From: Nonlabens ponticola
GTDB lineage: Bacteria; Bacteroidota; Bacteroidia; Flavobacteriales; Flavobacteriaceae
Direction: 5' to 3'
NCBI RefSeq assembly: GCF_003966335.1
Contig: NZ_CP034549.1
Coordinates: 1,320,001-1,352,000 of the forward strand
DNA: 32,000 nucleotides
Positions within the stretch are counted from its first letter, which is position 1, and the number at the start of each line of letters is the position of its first letter. Shown one piece after another: positions 2,083 through 30,044 of the stretch. Both the position numbers and the translations under genes were made by a program. Under the pieces are notes generated by a model that was given only the letters and a program-made list of their open reading frames with translations, was not told where the DNA came from and did not search any database.

Positions 2083-3474
2083 CTACAAGTGAATCACTTC
2101 ATCATAAGCATCTGCAACAGCCTCCATCACAGCCTCACTCATAGTCGGGTGTGGATGCACTGCTTTTAATACTTCGTGTCCAGTCGTTTCTAGCTTGCGC
2201 GCGACCACTGCTTCAGCGATCATGTCGGTTACGCCAGCACCTATCATGTGACATCCTAGCCACTCGCCATACTTGGCATCAAAAATTACTTTTACAAAGC
2301 CATCCTTAGTACCAGCAGCACTTGCCTTCCCTGATGCACTAAACGGAAACTTACCTACTTTAATATCATAACCAGCTTCTTTGGCTTGTGCTTCGGTATA
2401 ACCTACGCTTGCAATTTCTGGAGTAGAGTAGGTACAACCAGGAATATTGCCATAATCAAGTGGCTCAACGTGCATGTCTGCTATTTTCTCTACACACAAG
2501 ATACCTTCAGCACTTGCAACGTGAGCCAGCGCTGGGCCAGCGGTTATATCACCAATGGCATAGTAACCTGGGATGTTTGTCTGGTACCAGTCGTTGACTA
2601 ATACTTTACCTCGATCTGTTGAGATACCAACTTCTTCAAGGCCTATGCTCTTGATGTTGGTTTCAATACCTACCGCGCTTAATACGATGTCTGCCTCAAG
2701 AGTTTCTTCACCTTTTTTAGTCTTCACGGTTGCCTTCACGCCATCACCACTTGTGTCAACACTAGTAACCTCGCTTGAAGTCATGATGTTGATGCCTGTT
2801 TTCTTAAAGCTGCGTTCCATTTGTTTTGAAACATCCACATCTTCAACAGGAACGATGCGATCTAGATATTCAACGATAGTAACCTCAGTGCCCATTGCGT
2901 TATAGAAGTATGCAAACTCAACGCCTATGGCGCCAGAACCTACAATGATCATCTTTTTAGGCTGGCTCTCTAGTGTCATCGCCTCACGATAACCTATAAC
3001 CTTTTTGCCATCTTGTGGCAATGCTGGCAATTCGCGAGACTTTGCACCAGTGGCGATGATAATATGGTTAGCCTCAACAGTAGATGTTGATCCGTCTTCT
3101 GCCTTGACCTCAATTTTCTTTGCTTTTTTAAGCGTGCCGTAACCCATGATCACGTCGATCTTGTTCTTTTTCATCAAGAACTGCACACCTTTACTCATGC
3201 CATCTGCCACGTCGCGAGAACGTTTTACCACAGCATTAAAATCTTTATCTACATTATCTGCCTTCAAACCATAGTCTGCAGCATGATTCAAATAATTGAA
3301 TACATCAGCACTTTTGATGAGCGCTTTTGTTGGGATACAACCCCAATTGAGACACACGCCACCTAGCGATTCCTTCTCTACAATAGCCACCTTCATTCCT
3401 AGTTGAGAGGCGCGTATGGCAGTCACATATCCACCAGGACCACTACCCAAAACGATAACATCGTACTTACTCAT
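2083..3474 (-). CDS. lpdA: Dihydrolipoyl dehydrogenase (E3 component)
   Basis: 463 aa. It has the FAD-binding GSGPGGY motif, the redox-active disulfide CLNWGCIPTK and the C-terminal dimerisation motif HPHPTMSE. Confidence 0.95.
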   Translation of the reverse strand: MSKYDVIVLGSGPGGYVTAIRASQLGMKVAIVEKESLGGVCLNWGCIPTKALIKSADVFNYLNHAADYGLKADNVDKDFNAVVKRSRDVADGMSKGVQFLMKKNKIDVIMGYGTLKKAKKIEVKAEDGSTSTVEANHIIIATGAKSRELPALPQDGKKVIGYREAMTLESQPKKMIIVGSGAIGVEFAYFYNAMGTEVTIVEYLDRIVPVEDVDVSKQMERSFKKTGINIMTSSEVTSVDTSGDGVKATVKTKKGEETLEADIVLSAVGIETNIKSIGLEEVGISTDRGKVLVNDWYQTNIPGYYAIGDITAGPALAHVASAEGILCVEKIADMHVEPLDYGNIPGCTYSTPEIASVGYTEAQAKEAGYDIKVGKFPFSASGKASAAGTKDGFVKVIFDAKYGEWLGCHMIGAGVTDMIAEAVVARKLETTGHEVLKAVHPHPTMSEAVMEAVADAYDEVIHL

Positions 3475-3549
3475 ATCTGTCGATTTTTAAGAGCTGTAAA
3501 AATATAGAATAAACGCCAACTGATCGTATTTTTGACCAACCCATTTACC

Positions 3550-4590
3550 ATGTACAAATCACTTGTCAGGCCGCTGCTGTTCCGTTTTGATCCAGAAGGC
3601 GTACACCATTTCTCATTCAAGGCTATTAAATTATTGAGCAAGGTGCCTGGTTTTAGCACGCTTTCGCGAAAGCGTTACAAGCTCCAGCATCCTGCATTAA
3701 AAAGAAATCTATTTGGGTTAGAGTTTGAAAATCCTGTAGGTCTGGCCGCAGGTTTTGATAAGGATGCCAAAGCATTTGCAGAGTTCTCCAATCTAGGTTT
3801 TGGATTTGTAGAAATAGGCACGCTCACGCCTAAACCTCAAGAAGGAAATCCGAAACAAAGGCTTTTCAGGCTTAAGGATGATGCGGCGATCGTCAATCGC
3901 ATGGGCTTTAATAATGGCGGCGTTGACGCTGCAGTTGAGCGATTGAAAAATAATAAAGCCAGCGAGGACCGTGTACTGATAGGCGGCAATATAGGTAAGA
4001 ACAAAACGACACCTAATGAGCAAGCTGTCGAGGATTACATTATTTGTTTTAATAAGCTCTTTAACCATGTGGACTATTTCACGGTCAATGTAAGCTCGCC
4101 CAACACACCAGGATTACGCGAACTGCAAGACCGCAAACCATTGACACATATCTTGCAGACACTGCAAGATTTGAATAATGCACGACCACAGCGCAAACCA
4201 ATTTTACTCAAAATCGCACCAGACCTGACTGACGAGCAATTGCTGGACATCATAGGAATCGTAGAAGACACTCAAATTGACGGTGTTATAGCAACCAATA
4301 CGACTATCGAGCGCAAGGAGCTTAAAAGCGATATCACCCTGCAAAAAGAAGCAGGTGGTTTGAGCGGCGCACCACTTACAAATCGTGCGACACAGGTCAT
4401 CAAATTTCTATATGAAAAAAGCCATGGAGCTTTCCCAATCATCGGCGTTGGCGGAATCATGACCGCTCAAGATGCCATTGATAAAATAAAAGCTGGCGCC
4501 AGCCTCGTACAACTATACACTGGTTTTGTCTATGAAGGACCTGCTTTGGTAAGAGATATCAATAAAGAGATTCTAAGACAAGGCTTGTAG
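3550..4590 (+). CDS. pyrD: Dihydroorotate dehydrogenase (quinone), class 2
   Basis: The ORF track starts at TTG 3532. The ATG at 3550 gives [23 protein letters not shown], which matches the canonical PyrD N-terminus. [18 protein letters not shown] and GVGGI motifs are present. Confidence 0.93.
3658..3675. repeat. Iterated palindrome copy (PAL), perfect 18 bp ACGCTTTCGCGAAAGCGT, inside pyrD
   Basis: Read directly from the sequence. It is translated in frame as T-L-S-R-K-R. Confidence 0.9.
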
Positions 4591-5337: not shown

Positions 5338-5949
5338 TTACATGACGAGGTTTCGATTATAATAATCGGCCTCAAATCTCACGAATTGAATATTAGAGTT
5401 TAGTACCTGAGTTAAATCTTTCCAGCTAAATGATTTTCCTCTGCGTTGAGTCATTGCATTGGTTAGAACGATTTTATAGTAATAATGAACAGCTATAAAC
5501 AAAGCGGATATGCTTTCTAAAACATTTTTGAGATTTGCTTCATAATAAAATTCATTTCTTTCGTACTTTACCTTATTATGAATCGTCCACCAATTTGGAG
5601 CTTTGCTTGAGGACCAACCTTCGTATGGTTTAATGGGATTCAAATTAGATCCGATAAAAACAGATTCTGTGAATAAATCTGGTAGTTTGATTATTAAATC
5701 TTTTTGGTACTTGTAAATATTATCTGCTTTAGAGCTGCTCGTCAATTTTTTACAAATGTGTTTTAGAATAACATCAATTTCAGCGCAGCTCGATAATAGC
5801 AATCTTGTAAATTCTATCGAATATGACGAGAAGTTATCTTCTGTAAAGTCTATATATCTGGAGGCAATCTTCAAATCATATTCCAAAGCACAGAAATAAT
5901 CCCAATACTTCATTGATAGATCTTCTTCTGTAAGATTTTGAATGACCAT
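5338..5949 (-). CDS. Hypothetical protein of unknown family, AT-rich; see findings
   Basis: A 203-aa ORF with an ATG start 22 nt downstream of the GH15 stop on the same strand. It appears mostly helical. I cannot assign a family with confidence. Confidence 0.6.
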   Translation of the reverse strand: MVIQNLTEEDLSMKYWDYFCALEYDLKIASRYIDFTEDNFSSYSIEFTRLLLSSCAEIDVILKHICKKLTSSSKADNIYKYQKDLIIKLPDLFTESVFIGSNLNPIKPYEGWSSSKAPNWWTIHNKVKYERNEFYYEANLKNVLESISALFIAVHYYYKIVLTNAMTQRRGKSFSWKDLTQVLNSNIQFVRFEADYYNRNLVM

Positions 5950-11140: not shown

Positions 11141-12244
11141 TCTATGACAATGACAAGCTATTTTTATAAATAGTTTGGTTTTTGATCAGTGCGTAGATGA
11201 TGTGAATGATTTTGTTCCTGACGGCATTTAATACACTCATCTTATTTTTTCCTTCTGCAATTTTTCTCTGGTAATAGTACTTGAGGTCACATTCGAGTCT
11301 CACGGCTCTCATGGCGGCCATGTGCAACAAGGTCTTCATGGACTTATCTGCCATGTGGGACACCCTATTTCTAGATTTGAGTGATATTCCCGATTGATAG
11401 TTGAAGGGAACCACGCCAGCACTGCAGGCAAGTTTCCTGGGATCGGTGTAGGTGTTGAAGCCTTCGGTCTTGATGACGATAGCCGTCGAGAGCACCGTTC
11501 CCACACCTGGCACACTGCGTACCAGTTCTATCTGTTCCCTTATGGTTTGATCCATGTCTATCAACTCTTCCAAGATGGCTTCAAGATCCTTTATCTGTTG
11601 GCTTACCAGCTTTAGGCTCTTGTTGAACATATTGACAAGTCTGCGCTTGAGCCTTGGATCCTTGATCAGTTTCAGGTCTCTTTGCTGCTGGAGCAGCCTG
11701 GCGCGTGTCTTTATCTTCGATCTTCTTTCAGTCATCACGTACTTCATCTCCATGATCGTTTCACTGCACGGTTTCCACGGATCGAGTTCCTTATGATTCT
11801 TCTCGACAAAATTGGCGATGCGCTCTGCATCGACCTTATCATTCTTTCCTCTGACAAGTCCCAGGCTTTTCTTTAAATGGAAGGGATATATCACAAAGGT
11901 CTTTAGCTCCAGCGTCCGCAGGACCTCATAGAGATTGTAATTGTACCTTCCAGTGTTCTCCATACCCAGCAGTATGTTCCTGTCCTTACTCACCAATGGT
12001 ACAAGGAACTTCTTGATGGCACCCACCTTATTCTTGATCACGAAGAACTGATCACATCGTTGCTCTCTGATACAGATATCCAATGTCTGGGCACTGATAT
12101 CTATACCGATAATTAAATCTGTCATACCTTTATTTTTGATTAATAATGAAGAGAGGAGATCATCAATAATTCAATTCCTTAATAATGGGCTCGTATCCCT
12201 AATTTCTATTTGAAAATTTGATGATTAGATAGGCTCAGGTCTGT
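11141..12244 (-). mobile_element. IS110-family insertion sequence; boundaries are approximate and inferred from the split hairpin
   Basis: It contains a single DEDD-type transposase ORF. I found no terminal inverted repeats, as expected for IS110. It is flanked by the two complementary half-arms of a hairpin repeat. Confidence 0.55.
11142..12125 (-). CDS. IS110 family transposase (DEDD recombinase)
   Basis: 327 aa. The N-terminus is MTDLIIGIDISAQTLDICI (RuvC-like DEDD). The C-terminal SVPGVGTVLSTAIV and NKMSVLNAVRNKIIHIIYALI are typical of the IS110/IS116/IS902 transposase domains. Confidence 0.92.
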   Translation of the reverse strand: MTDLIIGIDISAQTLDICIREQRCDQFFVIKNKVGAIKKFLVPLVSKDRNILLGMENTGRYNYNLYEVLRTLELKTFVIYPFHLKKSLGLVRGKNDKVDAERIANFVEKNHKELDPWKPCSETIMEMKYVMTERRSKIKTRARLLQQQRDLKLIKDPRLKRRLVNMFNKSLKLVSQQIKDLEAILEELIDMDQTIREQIELVRSVPGVGTVLSTAIVIKTEGFNTYTDPRKLACSAGVVPFNYQSGISLKSRNRVSHMADKSMKTLLHMAAMRAVRLECDLKYYYQRKIAEGKNKMSVLNAVRNKIIHIIYALIKNQTIYKNSLSLS

Positions 12245-12252
12245 ATCAGCAT
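12245..12252. repeat. Right half-arm (ATCAGCAT) of the HP-A hairpin split by the IS110 element
   Basis: It is the exact reverse complement of 11132-11139. See the finding. Confidence 0.45.
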
Positions 12253-12479
12253 ATTGATTGATCGATCAAGAACTTATTATAGTGTACCTGAACCTATCCT
12301 CTCTTTTTCTATTGAAAATAATACATGCAAGTCTAAAGGAACTGGTTTCAGCATCTTACGTGGTCACTTTACTTACAAATCATTGATACTGCAATACTAC
12401 GAACAGATCACATTGTTAAATCCTTTGCACATCAAACTAACAAGTGTTAGTTTCGTTAGGAAATAACGACTCAATATTT

Positions 12480-15109: not shown

Positions 15110-15463
15110 ATGGACGAAAAGAAATATGATCTTGAAGATCGATTGATCAAGTTCGCTGTAGAAATTATCAATTTATCTAGAAAGGCAGATTGGAATGACT
15201 ACGCTTCAAGGTATTATCAGCAACAGCTGATACGTTCCTCTGGATCTGTCGCTTTAAATTTTGGAGAATTTTTAGGTGCCAGTAGTCAAAAAGACAAACT
15301 CAATAAACTGAATATTGCTCACAAAGAGATTAAAGAATGTAGGAACAATATACTTATTCAAATTGGTGCAGAACTCAATATAGTGTCAGAACTCAAAATA
15401 CTATCGCGAGAATCACTTGAATTAATCAAAATACTGAGAGCTATTATAAAATCTAAATCTTAA
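15110..15463 (+). CDS. Four-helix-bundle protein (23S rRNA intervening-sequence protein / Avd-like family)
   Basis: 117 aa. YDLEDRLIKFAVEIINL ... QLIRSSGSVALNFGE ... HKEIKECRN fits the PF05635-type four-helix-bundle pattern. It is AT-rich: 16 G+C in the 60 nt at 15301-15360 by hand count. Confidence 0.85.
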   Translation: MDEKKYDLEDRLIKFAVEIINLSRKADWNDYASRYYQQQLIRSSGSVALNFGEFLGASSQKDKLNKLNIAHKEIKECRNNILIQIGAELNIVSELKILSRESLELIKILRAIIKSKS

Positions 15464-17694: not shown

Positions 17695-18705
17695 TTGGAT
17701 AGCTTAACCCAAATCGTATTAGGCGCCGCTACCGGCGAAGTTGTTTTAGGACGTAAAGTAGGCAACAAAGCCATGCTTTATGGAGCTATTGCCGGCACGA
17801 TTCCCGACCTAGATGTGCTTGTCAAAAACTTTACCGACACGATTACAGCTACAGAGGCTCATCGTGGATTAAGCCATTCCATTGTTTTTTGCGTGCTGGC
17901 AGCACCATTGCTAGGTTGGCTGGTCAATAAAATCGAGCGTAAAGCAAATCTAGGCTGGAAACCTTGGGCGTGGTTATTCTTTTGGGGTTTGTTCACGCAT
18001 CCTTTATTAGATGTGTTCACAACTTGGGGAACGCAGTTGTTCTGGCCATTTGACCTGCGACTTGCGTTCAATAGCATATTTGTGATTGATCCATTTTACA
18101 CGATTCCGTTTCTGGGTTGCGTGATTTGGGCGATGTTCTTGAATAGAAAGTCTGCTCAACGCAGGAAAGTCAACTGGGCAGGAATAATCTGGAGTTCTTG
18201 TTACCTACTTTTGACTTTAGTATTGAAATCAATAGTTCACGGCAAATTTGAAAAAGCGCTAGAAGATAAGGGATATTCCTATTCAGAAATATCTACCAGG
18301 CCAGCTGCATTCAACACGATCTTGTGGAATGGCAATGTAGATGCGCGCGATGCCTATCTCATAAGTGACTATTCTTTTTTTGATACGCAGCCTATCGAGT
18401 TTGAGAGATTCCCAAAAAATCGCGCTCAAGAACCCAACTATGAACCGCAGCAAGCACAAATCAATCTTAAAAGACTTATTGATATTTCGCAGGGTTGGTA
18501 TCTTATGGAACAAAAGAAAAACACCTGGTTTTTCTATGATTTAAGATTTGGCCGCATACCAGTGAGCGATAGTGAGCAGAATTTTGTTTTTGCTTATGAG
18601 CTGGATCAAACAAACGAAACCTTAATCGCAACAGAGACAGAGAAAGACTTTGACAATGTCGATTTTATTCTGGAAAAACTTTGGGAGCGTATCAAGGGCA
18701 ATTAA
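17695..18705 (+). CDS. YdjM/DUF457-like membrane-bound metal-dependent hydrolase
   Basis: 336 aa. The TTG start directly abuts the paaG stop. The N-terminus (M)DSLTQIVLGAATGEVVLG...GTIPDLD...HRGLSHS matches the YdjM-like family pattern. Confidence 0.8.
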   Translation: MDSLTQIVLGAATGEVVLGRKVGNKAMLYGAIAGTIPDLDVLVKNFTDTITATEAHRGLSHSIVFCVLAAPLLGWLVNKIERKANLGWKPWAWLFFWGLFTHPLLDVFTTWGTQLFWPFDLRLAFNSIFVIDPFYTIPFLGCVIWAMFLNRKSAQRRKVNWAGIIWSSCYLLLTLVLKSIVHGKFEKALEDKGYSYSEISTRPAAFNTILWNGNVDARDAYLISDYSFFDTQPIEFERFPKNRAQEPNYEPQQAQINLKRLIDISQGWYLMEQKKNTWFFYDLRFGRIPVSDSEQNFVFAYELDQTNETLIATETEKDFDNVDFILEKLWERIKGN

Positions 18706-18722
18706 AAACGATATAATAGTAT

Positions 18723-19943
18723 ATGAATATTCAAAAAGTAGGGATAGTTGGCGCAGGAACTATGGGTAGTGGTATCGCTCAAGTTGCCGCTACTGCAGGA
18801 TGTAGCGTCACACTCTTTGATGTGAATAGCGATCAACTAGTCACAGCGCAAGATTCTTTAGAAAGGATCCTGGCAAGATTGGTAGAGAAGAATCGGATTG
18901 ATAATGAAGAGAGAGATAGGATATTGGGTAATATCGCTTTCAAGGAGCTAGGCGACGCAGAAGTTCATGCCGAGCGCAGTCGAGGTACGAAAGCGGAATC
19001 AGAACTATCATCCTGCGATTTAATTATTGAGGCAATCGTTGAGAATCTTGAGGTCAAAAAGAAGGTTTTTCAGAATCTGGAGAAAATCGTGAACGACGAC
19101 TGCGTTATTGCTACCAACACATCTAGCCTAAGCGTGACCAGTATTGCAGCCTCGCTAGAAAAGCCAGAACGTTGTATTGGAATCCATTTTTTTAATCCAG
19201 CACCTTTGATGAAACTGGTTGAAGTAGTGCCAGCCGTGCAAACCAATACTGAGATCACTGAAGGAATAGTTGAAACTATCAAAAGTTGGGGTAAAACGGT
19301 TGCCGTCGCAAAGGATACACCAGGCTTTATCGTCAATAGAGTGGCACGACCATTCTATAGTGAATCGCTGCGCATGCTGGAAGAAGGCATGGCAGATGTA
19401 CCTACCATAGATAAACTGGTGCGTCAAATGGGATTCCGTATGGGGCCTTTTGAGCTGACAGATTTCATAGGCCATGATGTGAATTATGCTGTGACAGAAT
19501 CTGTTTTTGCGGCCTTTTACTATGATCCACGCTACAAGCCGTCATTAACTCAAAAGCGATTGGTTGAAGCTGGATGGTTAGGTAAAAAAAGGGGCAAAGG
19601 TTTTTACACCTATCAAGATGGAAAGAAACAGGAGCTAGATCACAATCCAGAAATGATCACTGGCGCAGATGGAAAAGCGATGCAAGACCGCTTGCTGGTC
19701 ATGCTCATCAATGAAGCTGCGGATGCACTTTATCTAAATATCGCCAGTGCTGAAGATCTAGACAATGCAATGACCAAAGGAGTAAATTACCCTAAAGGGC
19801 TACTCGCCTGGGCAGATGAGAAAGGACTGGACTGGTGTGTAAATCAGCTGGATGCTTTGTATGATTTCTATAGAGAAGACCGCTATCGCTGCTCGCCATT
19901 ATTGCGCAGCAAGGCAAGTAAGAAGGAAAGGTTTTTCGCATGA
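18723..19943 (+). CDS. paaH: 3-hydroxyacyl-CoA dehydrogenase PaaH, carrying an apparent 15-aa in-frame insertion
   Basis: 406 aa. It has the N-terminal Rossmann motif VGIVGAGTMGSGIAQ, IEAIVENLEVKKKVF and the HFFNPAP motif. The segment KELGDAEVHAERSRG looks inserted; see the finding. Confidence 0.9.
   Translation: MNIQKVGIVGAGTMGSGIAQVAATAGCSVTLFDVNSDQLVTAQDSLERILARLVEKNRIDNEERDRILGNIAFKELGDAEVHAERSRGTKAESELSSCDLIIEAIVENLEVKKKVFQNLEKIVNDDCVIATNTSSLSVTSIAASLEKPERCIGIHFFNPAPLMKLVEVVPAVQTNTEITEGIVETIKSWGKTVAVAKDTPGFIVNRVARPFYSESLRMLEEGMADVPTIDKLVRQMGFRMGPFELTDFIGHDVNYAVTESVFAAFYYDPRYKPSLTQKRLVEAGWLGKKRGKGFYTYQDGKKQELDHNPEMITGADGKAMQDRLLVMLINEAADALYLNIASAEDLDNAMTKGVNYPKGLLAWADEKGLDWCVNQLDALYDFYREDRYRCSPLLRSKASKKERFFA
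18934..18997. repeat. Split PAL copy: left half TCGCTTTC (18934-18941) and right half GAAAGCGGA (18989-18997), separated by 47 nt
   Basis: Read directly from the sequence. Removing 45 nt restores ATC GCT TTC (G/A)CG AAA GCG GAA, which reads I-A-F-A/T-K-A-E. Confidence 0.6.
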
Positions 19944-20347
19944 TGGATGGAAAAAGCATTCCCGCTAAAATGCTCTCTCTGGATCCTTTCTCGCAATGGC
20001 TGGGAATAGAAATATTGAGCGTTGAGGTAGGTCGCGTGAAACTGGGTTTGACCATACGACCAGAAATGCTCAACAGCATGGGCAAAGCTCATGGCGGTAT
20101 AACTTACTCGCTTGCCGACACGGCATTTGGATTCACCTCAAACACGCACGGTAAAAAAGCGGTCTCCATTGAGACCAGCATCAACCACATAGAAGCCCTA
20201 GAAGCTGGCGATTACATCACTGCAGAATGCACGCTGGATAAAACCAAAACCAAAGTTGGTTTCAATATCGTCGAGATCAAAAAAGACGATGAGTTGGTGG
20301 CGCTATTTAAGGGTGTGGTTTATAGGACTAATAAAGATTGGGAATAG
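19940..20347 (+). CDS. paaI: Hydroxyphenylacetyl-CoA thioesterase PaaI (hotdog fold)
   Basis: 135 aa. Its ATG overlaps the paaH stop (ATGA). GKAHGGITYSLADTAFG is typical of PaaI thioesterases. Confidence 0.88.
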   Translation: MMDGKSIPAKMLSLDPFSQWLGIEILSVEVGRVKLGLTIRPEMLNSMGKAHGGITYSLADTAFGFTSNTHGKKAVSIETSINHIEALEAGDYITAECTLDKTKTKVGFNIVEIKKDDELVALFKGVVYRTNKDWE

Positions 20348-20348
20348 T

Positions 20349-20368
20349 TTCGCTTTCGCGAAAGCGAA
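20349..20368. repeat. PAL copy, perfect 20 bp TTCGCTTTCGCGAAAGCGAA, directly after the paaI stop
   Basis: Read directly from the sequence. This is the longest perfect copy in the window. Confidence 0.92.
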
Positions 20369-20398
20369 CATGGTTTAGAATGATTGTTAAGTAGAAAT

Positions 20399-21496
20399 AT
20401 GGCAGAAAAGAAAATCACTTATTTATTTGGAGCAGGAGCTAGTTATTATGCGGTGCCTATTTTGAATGGCTTATCGGATAAGTTTCGATTGGTAGCCAAA
20501 GAATTAAAACAGTCGGTAAGTGCAGGCAGTAGGTATGGTAGCTTTGATACGAAACCCTATCGCAATACGATATTTGAATTCTCGAGAGATCTAGAACACC
20601 TCGCAGAAATGAGTGAACAGTATGGTACACTTGACACTTATGCTAAAAAGTTAGATTTGAATGCTGAAAACGAATCATTACAAAAACTCAAGTTTTTAGT
20701 CAGCATATTCTTCACTATATGGCAAGGGCATTTTCATAAGAAAGAGGTAATTGAAGAAAATAAAAATCAAAAGCTATTCTACAACGATATTGACTCGCGA
20801 TATAAAAGTTTAGTTGCAAACTATTTAATAAAAGCATCGAACGCTGCGCCTAAATTGGATAATAATGTGAGATTTTTAAGTTGGAACTATGATAACCAGT
20901 TAGAAAGTGCTTTTTCATTATTTTTTAAAAGCCGACTTAATTTAACAGAATTGAATGAGCAGATAAAATTTTTACCAAATAATGAAAGCAAATTTCAAAA
21001 TAACGAAATTCTCCATCTTAATGGTGTTTCCAATTTTTGGATCAACGACTCACAAATTTTAGATAGGATATTCCAGCAAGATGATGAGTTATCAAATAAT
21101 GGAATTGTACGAAGAATTGCAGAATTATATAATCCATCAAATTTCAGTAAATGTCTTAGCTTAATTAATTATGCTTGGGACGATAATTCTTCAAAACTGA
21201 AAGAAGCTACTAGAATTTTGAAGCAGACAGATATTCTCATTATTATAGGTTACTCTTTCCCTACTTTTAATAGAGCAATTGATTCAAAATTATTAAGTGG
21301 ACATGACAACACATTTGAAAAAATAATTTATCAAGATCCTAATGCGTCAGAAGAATTATTGGAATTGTTTCATATAAATTTCGTGGGAAAGAGTGATTTT
21401 AGAATTCTCAAACAGGTTGATCAGTTTCACATACCACCAGAATATTTTCCTCAAGGTCGGAAACGTAAAAGATCAATAAAAGCTCAAGGCTATTAA
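20399..21496 (+). CDS. Stand-alone SIR2-like (SIR2_2-type) domain protein of unknown function
   Basis: The ORF is open from TTG 20384, and ATG 20399 (MAEKKITYLFGAGAS) is the likely start. The motif order GAGAS ... WNYDNQLE ... LHLNG ... IIGYSF..N..D parallels the SIR2_2 signature GAGxS / TTNYDxxxE / KLHG / GYSxxD. The gene is very AT-rich. Confidence 0.6.
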   Translation: MAEKKITYLFGAGASYYAVPILNGLSDKFRLVAKELKQSVSAGSRYGSFDTKPYRNTIFEFSRDLEHLAEMSEQYGTLDTYAKKLDLNAENESLQKLKFLVSIFFTIWQGHFHKKEVIEENKNQKLFYNDIDSRYKSLVANYLIKASNAAPKLDNNVRFLSWNYDNQLESAFSLFFKSRLNLTELNEQIKFLPNNESKFQNNEILHLNGVSNFWINDSQILDRIFQQDDELSNNGIVRRIAELYNPSNFSKCLSLINYAWDDNSSKLKEATRILKQTDILIIIGYSFPTFNRAIDSKLLSGHDNTFEKIIYQDPNASEELLELFHINFVGKSDFRILKQVDQFHIPPEYFPQGRKRKRSIKAQGY

Positions 21497-21528: not shown

Positions 21529-22740
21529 ATGAACACATACATAATAGACGGAATAAGAACACCGGTAGGTAACTACAAAGGAACCTTGTCAACGATACGG
21601 CCAGACGATCTTGCAGCTTATGTCATCAAAACCTTGGTTGAGAAACATCCAGAAATACCGCAAGAAGATTATGCAGATGTCATTATGGGCTGTGCTAATC
21701 AGGCAGGTGAGGACAATCGCAATGTCGCGCGCATGGCTGGATTACTGGCTGGATTACCTTACAGTGTTCCTGGAGAAACGGTAAATAGATTGTGCAGTTC
21801 TGGATTAAGCAGCATCGTACATGCGCACAGAGCAATTCAAACTGGCGATGGCGATATTTTTATATCAGGTGGTGTGGAAAACATGACTCGTGGACCGTTG
21901 GTAATTGCAAAACCAAGCAGTGCGTTTGGCACGGACGCTAAAATGTATGACAGCAGTTTTGGCTGGAGATTTGTCAACCAGAAAATGGCAGATATGTACG
22001 GCGTGGATGGCATGGGAAATACCGCCGAGAATCTGGTCGCCAAGTTTGATATATCACGTGAAGATCAAGATGCTTTTGCAGCATGGTCACAGCAAAAGGC
22101 GGCAGCCGCAAGAGAATCTGGTAGATTGGCTAAGGAAATTATCTCGGTTGAAATACCACAACGTAAAAAAGATCCTATCATATTCAAGGATGATGAGTTT
22201 ATCAAACCTACTACCACTAAAGAGGTATTGGCAAAACTGCGACCAGCCTTCAAAAAAGAAGGTGGATCTGTCACCGCAGGTAATTCCAGTGGACTTAACG
22301 ATGGTGCAGCAGCCACCATTGTTGCGAGTCAAGATGCGGTAGATAAATATGGTTTGAAACCACTCGCACGTATTTTAAGTAGTGCAGCAGTAGGCGTGGA
22401 GCCTAGAATTATGGGAATAGGTCCTGTAGAGGCCAGCAATCGTGCTCTCAAAAAAGCAGGTCTGACTATGGCTGACATGGATGTAATTGAACTTAACGAA
22501 GCTTTCGCTTCTCAAGCGCTGGCTTGTATTAGAGAATGGGGCTTGAAAGATGACGATCCTAGAATCAATCCTAATGGCGGTTCTATAGCGATAGGGCATC
22601 CACTAGGTATGACAGGAACAAGACTCGCTTTTACCGCAGCGTTGGAGTTATCGCTTTCGCGAAAGCGGTATGCTCTCATCACCATGTGTGTAGGCGTAGG
22701 TCAAGGTTACGCCATGGTTATAGAAAATGTTGCTCTTTAA
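21529..22740 (+). CDS. paaJ: 3-oxoadipyl-CoA / 3-oxo-5,6-dehydrosuberyl-CoA thiolase
   Basis: 403 aa. It has the thiolase motifs VNRLCSSGL (active-site Cys), NEAFASQ, GHPLGMTG and CVGVGQG. Confidence 0.92.
   Translation: MNTYIIDGIRTPVGNYKGTLSTIRPDDLAAYVIKTLVEKHPEIPQEDYADVIMGCANQAGEDNRNVARMAGLLAGLPYSVPGETVNRLCSSGLSSIVHAHRAIQTGDGDIFISGGVENMTRGPLVIAKPSSAFGTDAKMYDSSFGWRFVNQKMADMYGVDGMGNTAENLVAKFDISREDQDAFAAWSQQKAAAARESGRLAKEIISVEIPQRKKDPIIFKDDEFIKPTTTKEVLAKLRPAFKKEGGSVTAGNSSGLNDGAAATIVASQDAVDKYGLKPLARILSSAAVGVEPRIMGIGPVEASNRALKKAGLTMADMDVIELNEAFASQALACIREWGLKDDDPRINPNGGSIAIGHPLGMTGTRLAFTAALELSLSRKRYALITMCVGVGQGYAMVIENVAL
22652..22667. repeat. PAL copy, perfect 16 bp CGCTTTCGCGAAAGCG, inside paaJ
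   Basis: Read directly from the sequence. It is translated as L-S-R-K-R in a loop that is variable among thiolases. Confidence 0.9.
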
Positions 22741-22838: not shown

Positions 22839-25148
22839 ATGAAATATCTGTACTTACTGTTTTTATCATTTGGAGTTTTTAGTGCTGCTCAAGAAAATGT
22901 TGCAAAATCTATTAATACGACTGCGTATAAAGATCATTACAATGTTCCTCACGAGGCTCTTTATCTTCATTTGAATAAGAATGTTGTGGTGCCCAGCGAG
23001 CCCATAGGCTATAGTATTTATGTAAAAGATATCGCACAATCAGGCATAGATACCTTGGCTACTAATGTTTATGTCACTTTAGAGAATGACCAAGGAAAAC
23101 GAGTAGTTAGTGACCTCAATCTTTTATCGAAAGGATATGGTCATGGTCTAATAACAACTGATTCACTGGAGACCGGAAACTATATACTTAAGGCTTTTAC
23201 TGGCTGGATGCGCAATTTTGACAATCCGCATTTTTTCCAAGAAACAATTACCATAGTAGATCCTACTGAAAATATAACACGTGCCAATGCGGCTAGAGAA
23301 TTCGACATTCAATTGATGCCAGAAGGTGGTCATTTGGTAGAAGGTATCCCGAATACGGTAGGTGTTGTCATTAAGGATCAATATGGCCAAGGTGTTGCGA
23401 CAAAAGGTATTGTGGTAAATGATGATAACACGATAACCACCTTTAATACTGACTCAAGAGGATTAGGTCGTTTCACTCTTTTTCCACAAGGCGTCAAACA
23501 ATATATATGTAAAGTCAATTTGAATGACAAATCATTGACTGAAGTTCTACCTATGGCAAAAAACGAAGGGTACAACCTGCAATTAATACCGTGGAGTAGC
23601 GATATCACCATTCAACTCAATAGAAGAAATAGGAATGATAAAGACGTCAAGGTCATACTTCATAAAGGGCAAAAGTTGGTAGTTTATGACCCAGTTTTTG
23701 TAGATGATAAAGCTGTTTATAGTCTCAAAAAATCTACTTTACCTACTGGTGTTAATAAGGTTACCGTCATTGAAAATGGTAAGGAGGTTCTTTCTCGTAC
23801 ACTTTTTAACGACTATGATTTTGAGGTATTAGATGTTTCAAATCCTAGTGTAATTGTAGAACAAGATAGTTTATCACTGTATGTATCAGCCGTAAAAAAT
23901 TCGGGTGATTTAGTATCAAGTATTTCTGTGCTACCAGCTGGTAGTGTTGCCTATAACAACGACGCGTCAATTGTATCTTCTTTTATTCTACGTCCTTATA
24001 TTAAAGGCTCTGTACAGGATCCTAATTATTACTTTGAAAATATGGATCGACGCAAATTATACGATCTTGATAATTTGTTGATTACACAAGGATGGAGCGC
24101 CTACAAATGGGAAGATTATAAAGAAGTCAATGTAAAGTATCCCTATGAAGAAGGCATAGGTGCTAGAATTGCAGTTAATGGCAAAGTACAGGAGAGCTAT
24201 TTTGTGTTACCATTGAAAAATTCATCCAGCTCATTGTTTACTAAGGACGAGTTGGATGAGTCTAGAACATTTATGCTTAAGGGCTTAACGCCTACAAATA
24301 AGGAGCAACTCAAGGTCTCTGCTACAAAAAAGAATCAACGCCCGGTAAAACCATCGCTTGCTCCTACATTTTATCCTAGTATTGTTCCTGATTTTGATAA
24401 TTCTTACGATTATATATTGAGTAATGATTTACCACAAATTGAAAGTGGACAAATGATCTCATCATTTTCGTCTGGGACCACTCAATTGAGTGAAGTATTA
24501 GTAAAAGCCAAAGCAAGAGAAGAGAGGCGTCAAAAGCTGGTTGATGAATCTTTCAATCAGGTTTATGTATTCAACGAGGCCGATAGAAGAAATACATTAA
24601 ATCTCGCATTATGGCTCAACCAGCACGGATTTATTGCAAATCAAGATGGTGGATTTCTCACGGTCTCTAATAGAAATCCACAAAGCATTAATGCCTCTGT
24701 TGAGCCGCTGTTTGTAGTAGATGATGTCATTTATAACGATCCTTCAATTCTAGGTAATCTAGATATGAATACGGTAGATTATATTGAAATTAACCGACAA
24801 GGAAGTGGGTATGGTTTTAGAGGCTCTGGTGGCGTTATTATTATTAATACAGATCCTACATTATCCTCAGTAAATTCCACAAATGCCAACGTAAGTTCCT
24901 ATAAATTTCCAATCACCTTTAAAAAGCCGCAAGAATATTTTAAACCAGCGTACCTAAGTACACAAACAGATGTTTTTCAAAAGCTAGGTGCAATACATTG
25001 GGAACCACGAGTCAATTTAACAGGTGAATCAATCGAGAAAATAAAGTTCACATCACAATACAGAGGTGATGCCTTGATGATTGTAGAAGGAATGAATGCT
25101 GATGGCGCGCTTGTGAGCCGGATAGTTAAGTTCAATATTCCTGAGTAA
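22839..25148 (+). CDS. Large secreted/outer-membrane-associated protein with a C-terminal TonB-receptor-plug-like segment
   Basis: 769 aa with a signal peptide (MKYLYLLFLSFGVFSAAQ). The N-terminal region looks like an MG2/carboxypeptidase-regulatory-like beta sandwich (weak call). The C-terminal LFVVDDVIYND...VDYIEINRQGSGYGFRGSGGVIIINT resembles a plug domain. Confidence 0.55.
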   Translation: MKYLYLLFLSFGVFSAAQENVAKSINTTAYKDHYNVPHEALYLHLNKNVVVPSEPIGYSIYVKDIAQSGIDTLATNVYVTLENDQGKRVVSDLNLLSKGYGHGLITTDSLETGNYILKAFTGWMRNFDNPHFFQETITIVDPTENITRANAAREFDIQLMPEGGHLVEGIPNTVGVVIKDQYGQGVATKGIVVNDDNTITTFNTDSRGLGRFTLFPQGVKQYICKVNLNDKSLTEVLPMAKNEGYNLQLIPWSSDITIQLNRRNRNDKDVKVILHKGQKLVVYDPVFVDDKAVYSLKKSTLPTGVNKVTVIENGKEVLSRTLFNDYDFEVLDVSNPSVIVEQDSLSLYVSAVKNSGDLVSSISVLPAGSVAYNNDASIVSSFILRPYIKGSVQDPNYYFENMDRRKLYDLDNLLITQGWSAYKWEDYKEVNVKYPYEEGIGARIAVNGKVQESYFVLPLKNSSSSLFTKDELDESRTFMLKGLTPTNKEQLKVSATKKNQRPVKPSLAPTFYPSIVPDFDNSYDYILSNDLPQIESGQMISSFSSGTTQLSEVLVKAKAREERRQKLVDESFNQVYVFNEADRRNTLNLALWLNQHGFIANQDGGFLTVSNRNPQSINASVEPLFVVDDVIYNDPSILGNLDMNTVDYIEINRQGSGYGFRGSGGVIIINTDPTLSSVNSTNANVSSYKFPITFKKPQEYFKPAYLSTQTDVFQKLGAIHWEPRVNLTGESIEKIKFTSQYRGDALMIVEGMNADGALVSRIVKFNIPE

Positions 25149-29720: not shown

Positions 29721-30044
29721 ATGAAAACAATGTACACTTACATAATGGCTCATATTAAGAACCGTTTATTCTATGTGGGCGTTACAAACAATATTAAGCA
29801 ACGAGTCTTTGACCATAAGCATGCGACCTTTGGGACACATACGGGTCATTACAATATCAAACAATTAGTTTGGTATGAGAAACATGACCAACCGTTGGAA
29901 GCGATCAGAAGAGAAAAGCAAATTAAAAAATGGAAACGAGAGTATAAAATCAATCTCATAGAGTCCATAAATCCTGAATGGATCGATCTTGCGGCAGATT
30001 GGGATTTTACTCGCTATTTGACAAGTAAGGAAAGATTTAAATAA
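29721..30044 (+). CDS. Small GIY-YIG nuclease family protein (YhbQ/UPF0213-like)
   Basis: 107 aa. YTYIMAHIKNRLFYVGVTNNIKQRVFDHK ... LVWYEKH ... AIRREKQIKKWKREYKINLIESINPEW is the classic small stand-alone GIY-YIG pattern. Confidence 0.9.
   Translation: MKTMYTYIMAHIKNRLFYVGVTNNIKQRVFDHKHATFGTHTGHYNIKQLVWYEKHDQPLEAIRREKQIKKWKREYKINLIESINPEWIDLAADWDFTRYLTSKERFK

Follow-up and report, generated by a model that had tools for sequence, protein, structure and literature searches.

We analyzed a 32,000-nucleotide (nt) stretch of the Nonlabens ponticola genome (contig NZ_CP034549.1; hereafter the window) in which a gene for a SIR2-like protein lies inside a phenylacetate (paa) catabolic operon, between a paaI-like thioesterase gene and a paaJ-like thiolase gene. 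As assigned with Pfam, the surrounding cluster encodes a PaaE-like reductase, PaaA, PaaC and PaaD, an enoyl-CoA hydratase, a 3-hydroxyacyl-CoA dehydrogenase, the 4HBT thioesterase and the thiolase. An earlier note on this DNA had proposed that the SIR2-like open reading frame (ORF) opens at the ATG at 20399, and our data confirm that start, its forward strand and its stop at 21496. The encoded protein has 365 amino acids (aa), and the 366 given in the note is reached only if the stop codon is counted. The longest ORF opens upstream, at a TTG at 20384; we favor the ATG because the orthologs open with M-x-x-KKITYLFGAGAS.

The SIR2-like gene is the lowest-GC (guanine plus cytosine) 1.1 kb of the window, at 0.317 against a mean of 0.412 (standard deviation 0.031) over the full 32 kb; its two flanking genes have native composition (Table 1). 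Local counts made by hand in the earlier note proved exact, with 13/60 and 16/60 G+C at 20941–21000 and 21241–21300, and 31/60 at 21721–21780 in paaJ. Only 51 nt separate the gene from paaI and 32 nt from paaJ, and in other species its start overlaps the thioesterase stop codon. Scans for sigma-70 promoters, for terminators and for the Bacteroidetes -7 motif TAnnTTTG found nothing above chance near the gene. Because no promoter or terminator of its own was detected and the gaps are tiny or overlapping, the simplest inference is that the gene is read through from the paa operon, and it is probably co-transcribed with it.

Table 1. Features of the SIR2-like gene and its immediate surroundings, in window coordinates.
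Feature	Position	Strand	Evidence and remarks
4HBT thioesterase (paaI-like), upstream flank	19940..20347	+	Pfam PF03061; GC 0.453; native composition; 84–91% identical across Nonlabens
Perfect 20-nt palindrome TTCGCTTTCGCGAAAGCGAA at the left edge of the variable cassette	20349..20368	.	Longest perfect copy in the window; homology break at 20367
SIR2-like coding sequence	20399..21496	+	365 aa plus stop; ORF list, ortholog starts, AlphaFold2 confidence and Foldseek SIR2 matches (see text)
G11-A-G-A-S15, Rossmann glycine-rich predicted NAD-binding loop	20429..20443	+	G11, G13 and S15 in 343/343 members; aligns with ThsA AGAGLS
N163-Y164-D165, NYD motif, equivalent to ThsA N112-Y-D	20885..20893	+	351/351 members; hhalign with ThsA TTNYD
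H206-L207-N208-G209, non-canonical 'HG' motif; N208 at the predicted catalytic-His position	21014..21025	+	N208 in 348/349, G209 in 349/349; hhalign with ThsA
G284-Y-S-F-P-x-F-N-x-x-I-D295, GYS...D motif	21248..21283	+	G284, P288, N291 and D295 in 345/345; aligns with ThsA GFSFTDPN and CobB GTS
Thiolase (paaJ-like), downstream flank	21529..22740	+	Pfam Thiolase_N and Thiolase_C; GC 0.451; native composition; 84–89% identical across Nonlabens

A large SIR2-like family with asparagine at the catalytic-histidine position

We built an AlphaFold2 model of the window protein on an alignment of its homologs, and obtained a confident prediction (predicted local distance difference test score, pLDDT, 90.3; predicted template modeling score, pTM, 0.89). 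In a Foldseek search of the PDB, the six matches at E ≤ 1e-3 all came from SIR2 proteins, followed by at least 40 sirtuins. The top matches were SIR2-HerA (8sub_E, E = 6.9e-7, and 8yhx), SPARSA (8jkz_A), KomBC (9v0g_E) and DSR2 (8xff_A). The model thus predicts a SIR2 fold for the window protein. The earlier note had read the protein as SIR2_2-like from the order of four motifs, and these are present in that order: ITYLFGAGAS at residue 6, FLSWNYDNQLE at 159, EILHLNGV at 203 and LIIIGYSFPTFNRAID at 280. Structural matches, motif invariance across the family and a collinear profile alignment with ThsA (below) all support that reading.

An exhaustive profile search recovered 2,747 homologous clusters (50% identity) at E ≤ 1e-3, 1,602 of them at E ≤ 1e-30, and a search of a 90%-identity database gave 1,763 homolog matches, which their sources name 'hypothetical protein'. 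Essentially all listed members are 330–390 aa long, compared with about 1,000 aa for the DSR proteins, a difference in size that the earlier note had remarked on for the window protein. Nearly all are single-domain proteins, and the SIR2-like domain covers all 365 aa of the window protein. A model dedicated to this family is absent from PADLOC 2023, Pfam 2025, NCBIfam 2026 and PHROGs v4. Searches of NCBIfam, PHROGs, BFVD structures and PLSDB plasmids returned no matches, and searches against the sequences of solved structures, made with phmmer from the protein itself and with hmmsearch from full-length family, N-terminal 222-residue and KLNG-subfamily profiles, gave only spurious matches (E > 0.3). 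These data indicate a very large, uncharacterized family without a name, whose members stand alone and are about 350 aa long.

To count invariant residues we used a sample of 351 members, with per-residue denominators of 343 to 351. The glycine-rich, NYD and GYS...D motifs are essentially constant (Table 1). Other polar residues are likewise invariant in the family (D79, D132, R134, Q167, N291, D295 and Q312); D79, D132 and R134 belong to the helical small domain, which carries motifs particular to the family (DTYAKKL and IDxRY). The catalytic His of the canonical (K)xHG motif has no match here, and Asn occupies its place in all but one of 349 members. Position 206, two residues upstream, is variable: 295 of these 349 members have His, 39 Lys, 8 Arg, 3 Tyr and 2 Gln. 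H206-L-N-G209 is invariant in the 47 closest homologs, and a distant branch reads (I/V)-K-L-N-G-(T/S), which corresponds in sequence to the canonical K-L-H-G-(S/T) with Asn replacing His. In about 60 of the 351 members a second His-Gly follows directly (C-H-L-N-G-Y/F-H-G), where the window protein reads H-L-N-G-V-S-N.

We compared the family profile by hhalign with ThsA, using a reference sequence verified as identical to PDB 6lhx_A and 116 aligned ThsA homologs. The two align collinearly over four motifs, pairing GAGAS with AGAGLS, SWNYDlQlE with TTNYDKLIE, IihLNG with VYKMHG and IIGYSFPxFN with IGFSFTDPN. Against single sequences (ThsA, and CobB of E. coli) hhalign aligned only short pieces of the family profile; that with CobB pairs IIIGYS with IAIGTS. 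In the ThsA alignment N208 stands opposite H152 and H206 opposite K150. On the strength of this collinearity, which extends over the four motifs, and of the KLNG variants, which mirror KLHG, we assign N208 to the catalytic-His position, which bears out the earlier note's observation of an Asn at that site.

We also considered His206 as a register-shifted catalytic His, an option that the earlier note had raised. Among the 47 close homologs this residue never varies; it sits where a beta-strand ends and gives an Asn-to-His spacing of 43 residues, within the 38–49 of known enzymes. We rejected this assignment on the Lys, Arg, Tyr or Gln found there in the wider sample and on the placement of Asn208 opposite ThsA H152; the upstream His replaces the usual Lys of K-L-H-G. 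By these alignments, Asn208 in place of the catalytic His is a defining invariant of the family, and His206 a subfamily feature only.

In known SIR2 enzymes, the catalytic His has been assigned or mutated in ThsA, DSR2, KomC and the Paenibacillus SIR2-HerA protein, with loss of activity documented here for KomC H146A alone, a mutant that loses both NADase activity and defense (PMC13454610). The SIR2 protein of Paenibacillus SIR2-HerA has N163, D165 and H212 as putative catalytic residues (PMC11472057). The equivalent residues in KomC and DSR2 are H146 and H171, and PDB mutant entries exist for KomC(H146N) and DSR2(H171A). The motifs of an NAD-type pocket are otherwise fully kept in the family, and by sequence this looks like a real, constrained pocket.

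The paaI–paaJ junction and the genomic context of the family

Four Nonlabens homologs (46–63% identical) sit at the identical thioesterase–thiolase junction, and diverged alleles (43–65% identical) occupy it in the same orientation in at least six Nonlabens lineages. We surveyed this junction in 80 Flavobacteriaceae loci gathered with the thiolase as query. The SIR2-like gene is present in 2 of the 80, as well as in 4 further Nonlabens loci, and is found only in some Nonlabens. In about 29 of the 80 loci, including those of Zunongwangia, Dokdonia, Aequorivita, Altibacter and Mesonia, the junction holds no gene (12–215 nt gap); other loci have a 23S_rRNA_IVP gene, a gene for a 285-aa zinc peptidase, or uncharacterized genes for proteins of 170–195 aa. 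A 23S_rRNA_IVP gene occupies the junction of N. antarcticus (locus L021), the closest by thiolase identity (91%), and the junction of one Nonlabens (L056) is empty. Homology of the window to both loci runs through paaI and the palindrome to 20367, breaks off, and resumes near 21532.

In all five species with the gene that were compared, the GC content of the SIR2-like gene is 0.27–0.32, compared with 0.38–0.47 in its flanks (10–15 points below). No transposase, recombinase or terminal repeats accompany it, and in the loci that we fetched its more distant homologs are never in a paa context. The earlier note had described a gene of foreign composition inserted between paaI and paaJ. Base composition and the homology break agree with this description, but the insertion is neither recent nor unique, since the same junction is occupied in at least six Nonlabens lineages. 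The picture that the note had set against its own proposal, that of a conserved metabolic-operon member with native composition, does not describe a gene found at 2 of 80 loci and low in GC in five species. We read the SIR2-like gene, from its sequence and distribution, as a horizontally acquired guest cassette rather than an enzyme of the phenylacetate pathway.

Rates of divergence set the gene apart from its flanks. Between two Nonlabens loci (L001 and L004), flanking proteins are 95–98% identical and the SIR2-like protein is 65% identical, and nucleotide identity drops from about 90% to 43–80% exactly inside the gene. For this pair, synonymous divergence (dS) is 1.38 compared with 0.41–0.54 in the flanks, and nonsynonymous divergence (dN) is 0.27 compared with 0.02–0.03. 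The dN/dS ratio of the SIR2-like gene (omega) is 0.19, and this value places the protein under purifying selection. Across four species its identities are star-like (57–65%), whereas the flanks show a clear hierarchy. With purifying selection acting, the pattern fits either the exchange of old alleles at a fixed location or very rapid diversification; it does not fit an ordinary operon member.

The cassette's left edge is marked by a palindrome that the earlier note had described as perfect and as the longest perfect copy in the window, and it is both. Its 16-nt palindromic core, CGCTTTCGCGAAAGCG, recurs in the window in 11 copies with up to two mismatches (at 3659, 8579, 10614, 13618, 16831, 17478, 20351, 22652, 25216, 28396 and 29203), compared with 0.01 expected. 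Some copies are intergenic and others intragenic; the copy in the thiolase gene encodes S-L-S-R-K-R-Y. The 14-mer core occurs 2–4 times per 10 kb in nearly all longer Nonlabens loci, although L023 has no copy, and also in Dokdonia pacifica; nine further Flavobacteriaceae loci (L035–L043) lack it. The palindrome is a genus-wide Nonlabens repeat and not a signature of the SIR2-like gene. The repeat might act as an uptake-like signal, be bound by a protein or serve for recombination.

Other genes also vary between paa operons. Small, low-GC 23S_rRNA_IVP genes, which encode bAvd-like four-helix bundles, lie at varied paa junctions across Nonlabens: at 15110–15463 in the window, in four copies within the 17-kb locus L001 (2318–2671, 3602–3961, 5462–5821 and 16173–16550), and at 3579–3956 in L021, where the copy takes the place of the SIR2-like gene. 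A YdjM membrane gene lies between the hydratase and dehydrogenase genes in the window alone (in the window, these other variable junctions are at 17695–18705 and 29721–30044), a DUF1697 gene precedes paaI in L001 (7005–7589) and L004, and a small GIY-YIG gene follows paaZ in several species. Aequorivita and its relatives (L042, L045, L048, L055, L057 and others, at about 3000–3980) encode a conserved 285-aa putative neutral zinc metallopeptidase (PF04228) at the paaI–paaJ junction, and the 170–195-aa proteins found there in Aquimarina and Dokdonia have no Pfam match. The whole paa operon seems to be a landing pad for co-oriented guest genes.

Further features of the window lie outside this junction. 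An IS110-family transposase gene (DEDD_Tnp_IS110 and Transposase_20; 11142–12125, reverse strand) sits just upstream of the paa cluster, beside a low-GC segment at 12001–12400. Two low-GC ORFs (0.31–0.39) have no Pfam match, one of 769 aa (22839–25148, forward strand) and one of 202 aa (5338–5949, reverse strand). The 769-aa ORF comes after the thiolase gene; at that position, compared by position only, L005 has a 760-aa gene without a Pfam match, and L001 and L004 have other genes.

For the wider family, we fetched about 98 loci with a family member, of which 76 had an upstream neighbor ORF after removal of duplicates. In 12 of these 76 the upstream neighbor is an MmeI/Eco57I-type type IIG restriction enzyme, and in 11 of the 12 the two genes are co-oriented. 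The gap between full-length upstream genes and the SIR2-like gene is -4 to 44 nt; the exception is L177, where the two genes lie on opposite strands, 298 nt apart. A few other loci have a different methyltransferase, a ResIII or an HsdR gene upstream, and overall a restriction gene of type IIG or type I directly precedes about 15–20% of family members. The restriction-linked members are only 24–57% identical in pairwise comparison and include both HLNG and KLNG types; because they are spread over the family in this way, we regard the link as recurrent and not as the property of one clade. The earlier note's statement that the gene has no partner holds for the window ORFs that we scanned but not for the family as a whole.

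Five loci illustrate this arrangement, each a two-gene unit of a type IIG (MmeI/Eco57I-like) gene with a SIR2-like gene directly 3' of it, the two often overlapping by 4 nt: L007 (4795–9092), L010 (5203–9041), L129 (3020–6990), L160 (2860–6842) and L165 (2658–7008). HNH, HipA-like, GmrSD and AbiEii genes lie in the same islands, and family homologs occur in Leptospira LE1-like phages and in 12 IMG/VR contigs. We found no recurrent downstream partner gene in the fetched family loci, and when every fetched locus was scanned with a regular expression for canonical SIR2_2 proteins, only family members came up. The type IIG and SIR2-like units, recurrent in unrelated metagenomic lineages, may constitute an undescribed composite defense system.

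Candidate functions and comparison with known SIR2 systems

SIR2 domains are among the commonest effectors of bacterial immunity. Together, genomic context and predicted fold suggest that the window gene is probably a phage-defense or conflict gene. The reading that we favor, with about even confidence, is of a horizontally acquired, NAD-binding SIR2_2-type conflict or defense cassette carried in the paa operon. The protein, as its conserved motifs predict, would use the canonical pocket to bind NAD+ or a nucleotide derived from NAD. It might then consume or transfer this ligand by a His-independent reaction, such as a glycohydrolase, base-exchange or ADP-ribosyl-transfer reaction, or might instead bind it without turnover, as a signal or licence in a sensor or regulator. 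Sirtuins cleave off nicotinamide mainly through the Asn/Asp pocket, and their His acts in a later step. The outcome would be that growth of infected cells is stopped, or that restriction is backed up. Coupling to restriction genes would fit a back-up or guard role, by analogy with PrrC and EcoprrI.

Several observations weigh against this reading. Foldseek TM-scores are modest (0.3–0.43), although such values would fit a shared Rossmann core joined to a different helical small domain. Profile searches divide: the PADLOC 'SIR2' model (414 positions) matches residues 3–139 of the window protein, weakly (E = 5e-7), but in Pfam the protein reaches no threshold, with SIR2_2 (PF13289) unmatched even at E ≤ 10. 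The same Pfam model is matched at E ≤ 0.01 by 17 of 47 close homologs, three of which (P0074, P0100 and P0109, at 26.4–26.9 bits) pass its gathering score of 24.5 bits, and by 8 of 42 distant family members. The hhalign match between the family and ThsA has E = 0.023, which is not significant alone, and it draws on the four-motif collinearity and the KLNG variants. The canonical NADase reaction is doubtful for the window protein because Asn stands at the His position, KomC H146A is inactive, and His-to-Ala or His-to-Asn mutants of DSR2 and KomC have been used for structures. No TIR, HerA, pAgo, STAND or restriction gene is present among the window ORFs scanned, and the window protein has no fused sensor domain. 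About 80% of family loci show a lone gene among ordinary housekeeping neighbors, and the fixed position within a catabolic operon across the genus could point to a host function. In the literature we found nothing relevant on SIR2 proteins with MmeI, in a search that was incomplete, so that an earlier description of the family may exist.

The doubt over NADase chemistry bears on a rival reading, rather unlikely in our view but the strongest of those we considered, in which the protein is a catalytically inactive SIR2-like pseudoenzyme whose one function would be to bind a ligand (NAD+, ADP-ribose or some nucleotide signal) as a sensor, sponge or regulator, for instance one regulating or guarding a restriction enzyme. 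The invariant Asn, the inactivity of KomC H146A and the deposition of His-to-Ala and His-to-Asn forms of DSR2 and KomC as structural variants would all fit such a protein, as would the fully kept NAD-binding motifs and the translational coupling of some members to type IIG enzymes. However, over 20 polar residues (N163, D165, Q167, D79, D132, R134, N291 and D295 among them) are all but fixed in the 2,700 clusters, a degree of constraint more enzyme-like than binder-like, and most members have no partner to regulate. Less probable still is a purely selfish guest. Such a gene, or else a toxin or addiction module, would exploit operon junctions to be expressed, bring the host no benefit, and be kept by horizontal transfer and allele replacement. 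The company of 23S_rRNA_IVP, GIY-YIG, DUF1697 and YdjM genes as variable guests of paa junctions would favor it, as would the foreign composition in every species and the presence, absence or replacement of the gene among close relatives. An omega of 0.19 points instead to purifying selection; moreover, the gene lacks a transposase, a recombinase and terminal repeats, and the 51-nt and 32-nt gaps are too small for an antitoxin-sized ORF.

The placement of the gene could also be explained by a role in phenylacetate catabolism in Nonlabens, such as that of a sirtuin-like deacylase or ADP-ribosyltransferase regulating an acyl-CoA ligase or some other enzyme of the pathway. AMP-forming acyl-CoA synthetases are under sirtuin control, for example Acs under that of CobB. 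A position and orientation shared by at least six Nonlabens lineages, the tiny or overlapping gaps and the undetected promoter and terminator are what such an accessory would show. Yet the gene is absent from most Flavobacteriaceae paa operons and from several Nonlabens, including N. antarcticus; its distant homologs are never in a paa context; its composition is foreign; and it diverges 5–10 times faster than the paa genes. The protein also lacks the catalytic His for deacylation and, with a single Cys, has no zinc-binding Cys motif. Because its presence at the junction is patchy, its divergence fast and its composition foreign, a role in phenylacetate metabolism appears unlikely, and we consider the accessory reading the least probable of all, with very little credence.

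A broader form of the cassette reading, which we put forward tentatively and as clearly less secure than the cassette itself, extends it to the whole family. In this proposal, minimal SIR2-fold proteins with Asn for His (about 350 aa; no fewer than 2,700 clusters) form an unrecognized class that would constitute a new single-gene immune module, possibly backing up or guarding type IIG or type I restriction, acting through a His-independent reaction or through sensing of an NAD signal, and carried in Nonlabens as a hypervariable cassette transcribed with a catabolic operon. If this is true, a huge family with a full NAD pocket and a constant Asn would imply new SIR2-fold chemistry (NAD cleavage independent of His, transfer of ADP-ribose, or use of another substrate), or alternatively a widespread class of pseudoenzymes that sense NAD or ADP-ribose. 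If confirmed, coupling to type IIG enzymes would suggest a second layer attached to restriction-modification, and a defense-like cassette would be seen to live and turn over fast in a conserved metabolic operon as opposed to a classical defense island.

The window gene fits no named system among SIR2-HerA, Thoeris, DSR, SPARSA and the sirtuin deacylases. Its best structural match is the SIR2 protein of SIR2-HerA (Nezha), which has a similar size (about 400 aa) and likewise combines a Rossmann large domain with a helical small domain. The catalytic pair of that protein, N163 and D165, falls at the same sequence positions in the window protein (PMC11472057). SIR2-HerA differs in its HerA ATPase gene, which is found neither in the window nor among the immediate neighbors at about 76 family loci, and in H212, where the window family has Asn; the sequence similarity between the two is too low for HMMER.

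The SIR2 domains of ThsA, KomC and DSR2 (PF13289) contain the window protein's four motifs in identical order, and its top fold matches include KomC and DSR2, but their H152, H146 and H171, respectively, correspond to the invariant Asn of the window family. Each of these systems also has parts that the window gene lacks. Thoeris ThsA carries a C-terminal SLOG domain and is adjacent to a TIR protein, ThsB; the window protein has no SLOG domain and the window no TIR gene. Kongming includes KomA and KomB, neither of which accompanies the window gene, and DSR1 and DSR2 devote about 700 aa of their length to a C-terminal sensor that is absent from the family. SPARSA resembles the window protein at the level of fold only, and its APAZ fusion and short pAgo are both missing from the window.

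PrrC, an ABC-ATPase-like anticodon nuclease, is a latent effector encoded within or directly 3' of a restriction-modification locus, that of EcoprrI. Here the likeness is a functional analogy only: family members can be restriction-adjacent, often with overlapping stop and start codons, but the folds are unrelated and no restriction gene lies near the copy in the window. Canonical sirtuins (CobB, Sir2Af and SIRT2) share with the window protein the fold and the GAGxS, NxD and G(T/Y)S motifs. They differ in their zinc-binding CxxC...CxxC motif and catalytic His, whereas the window protein has one Cys, an Asn at the His position, a different helical small domain, and a mobile gene.

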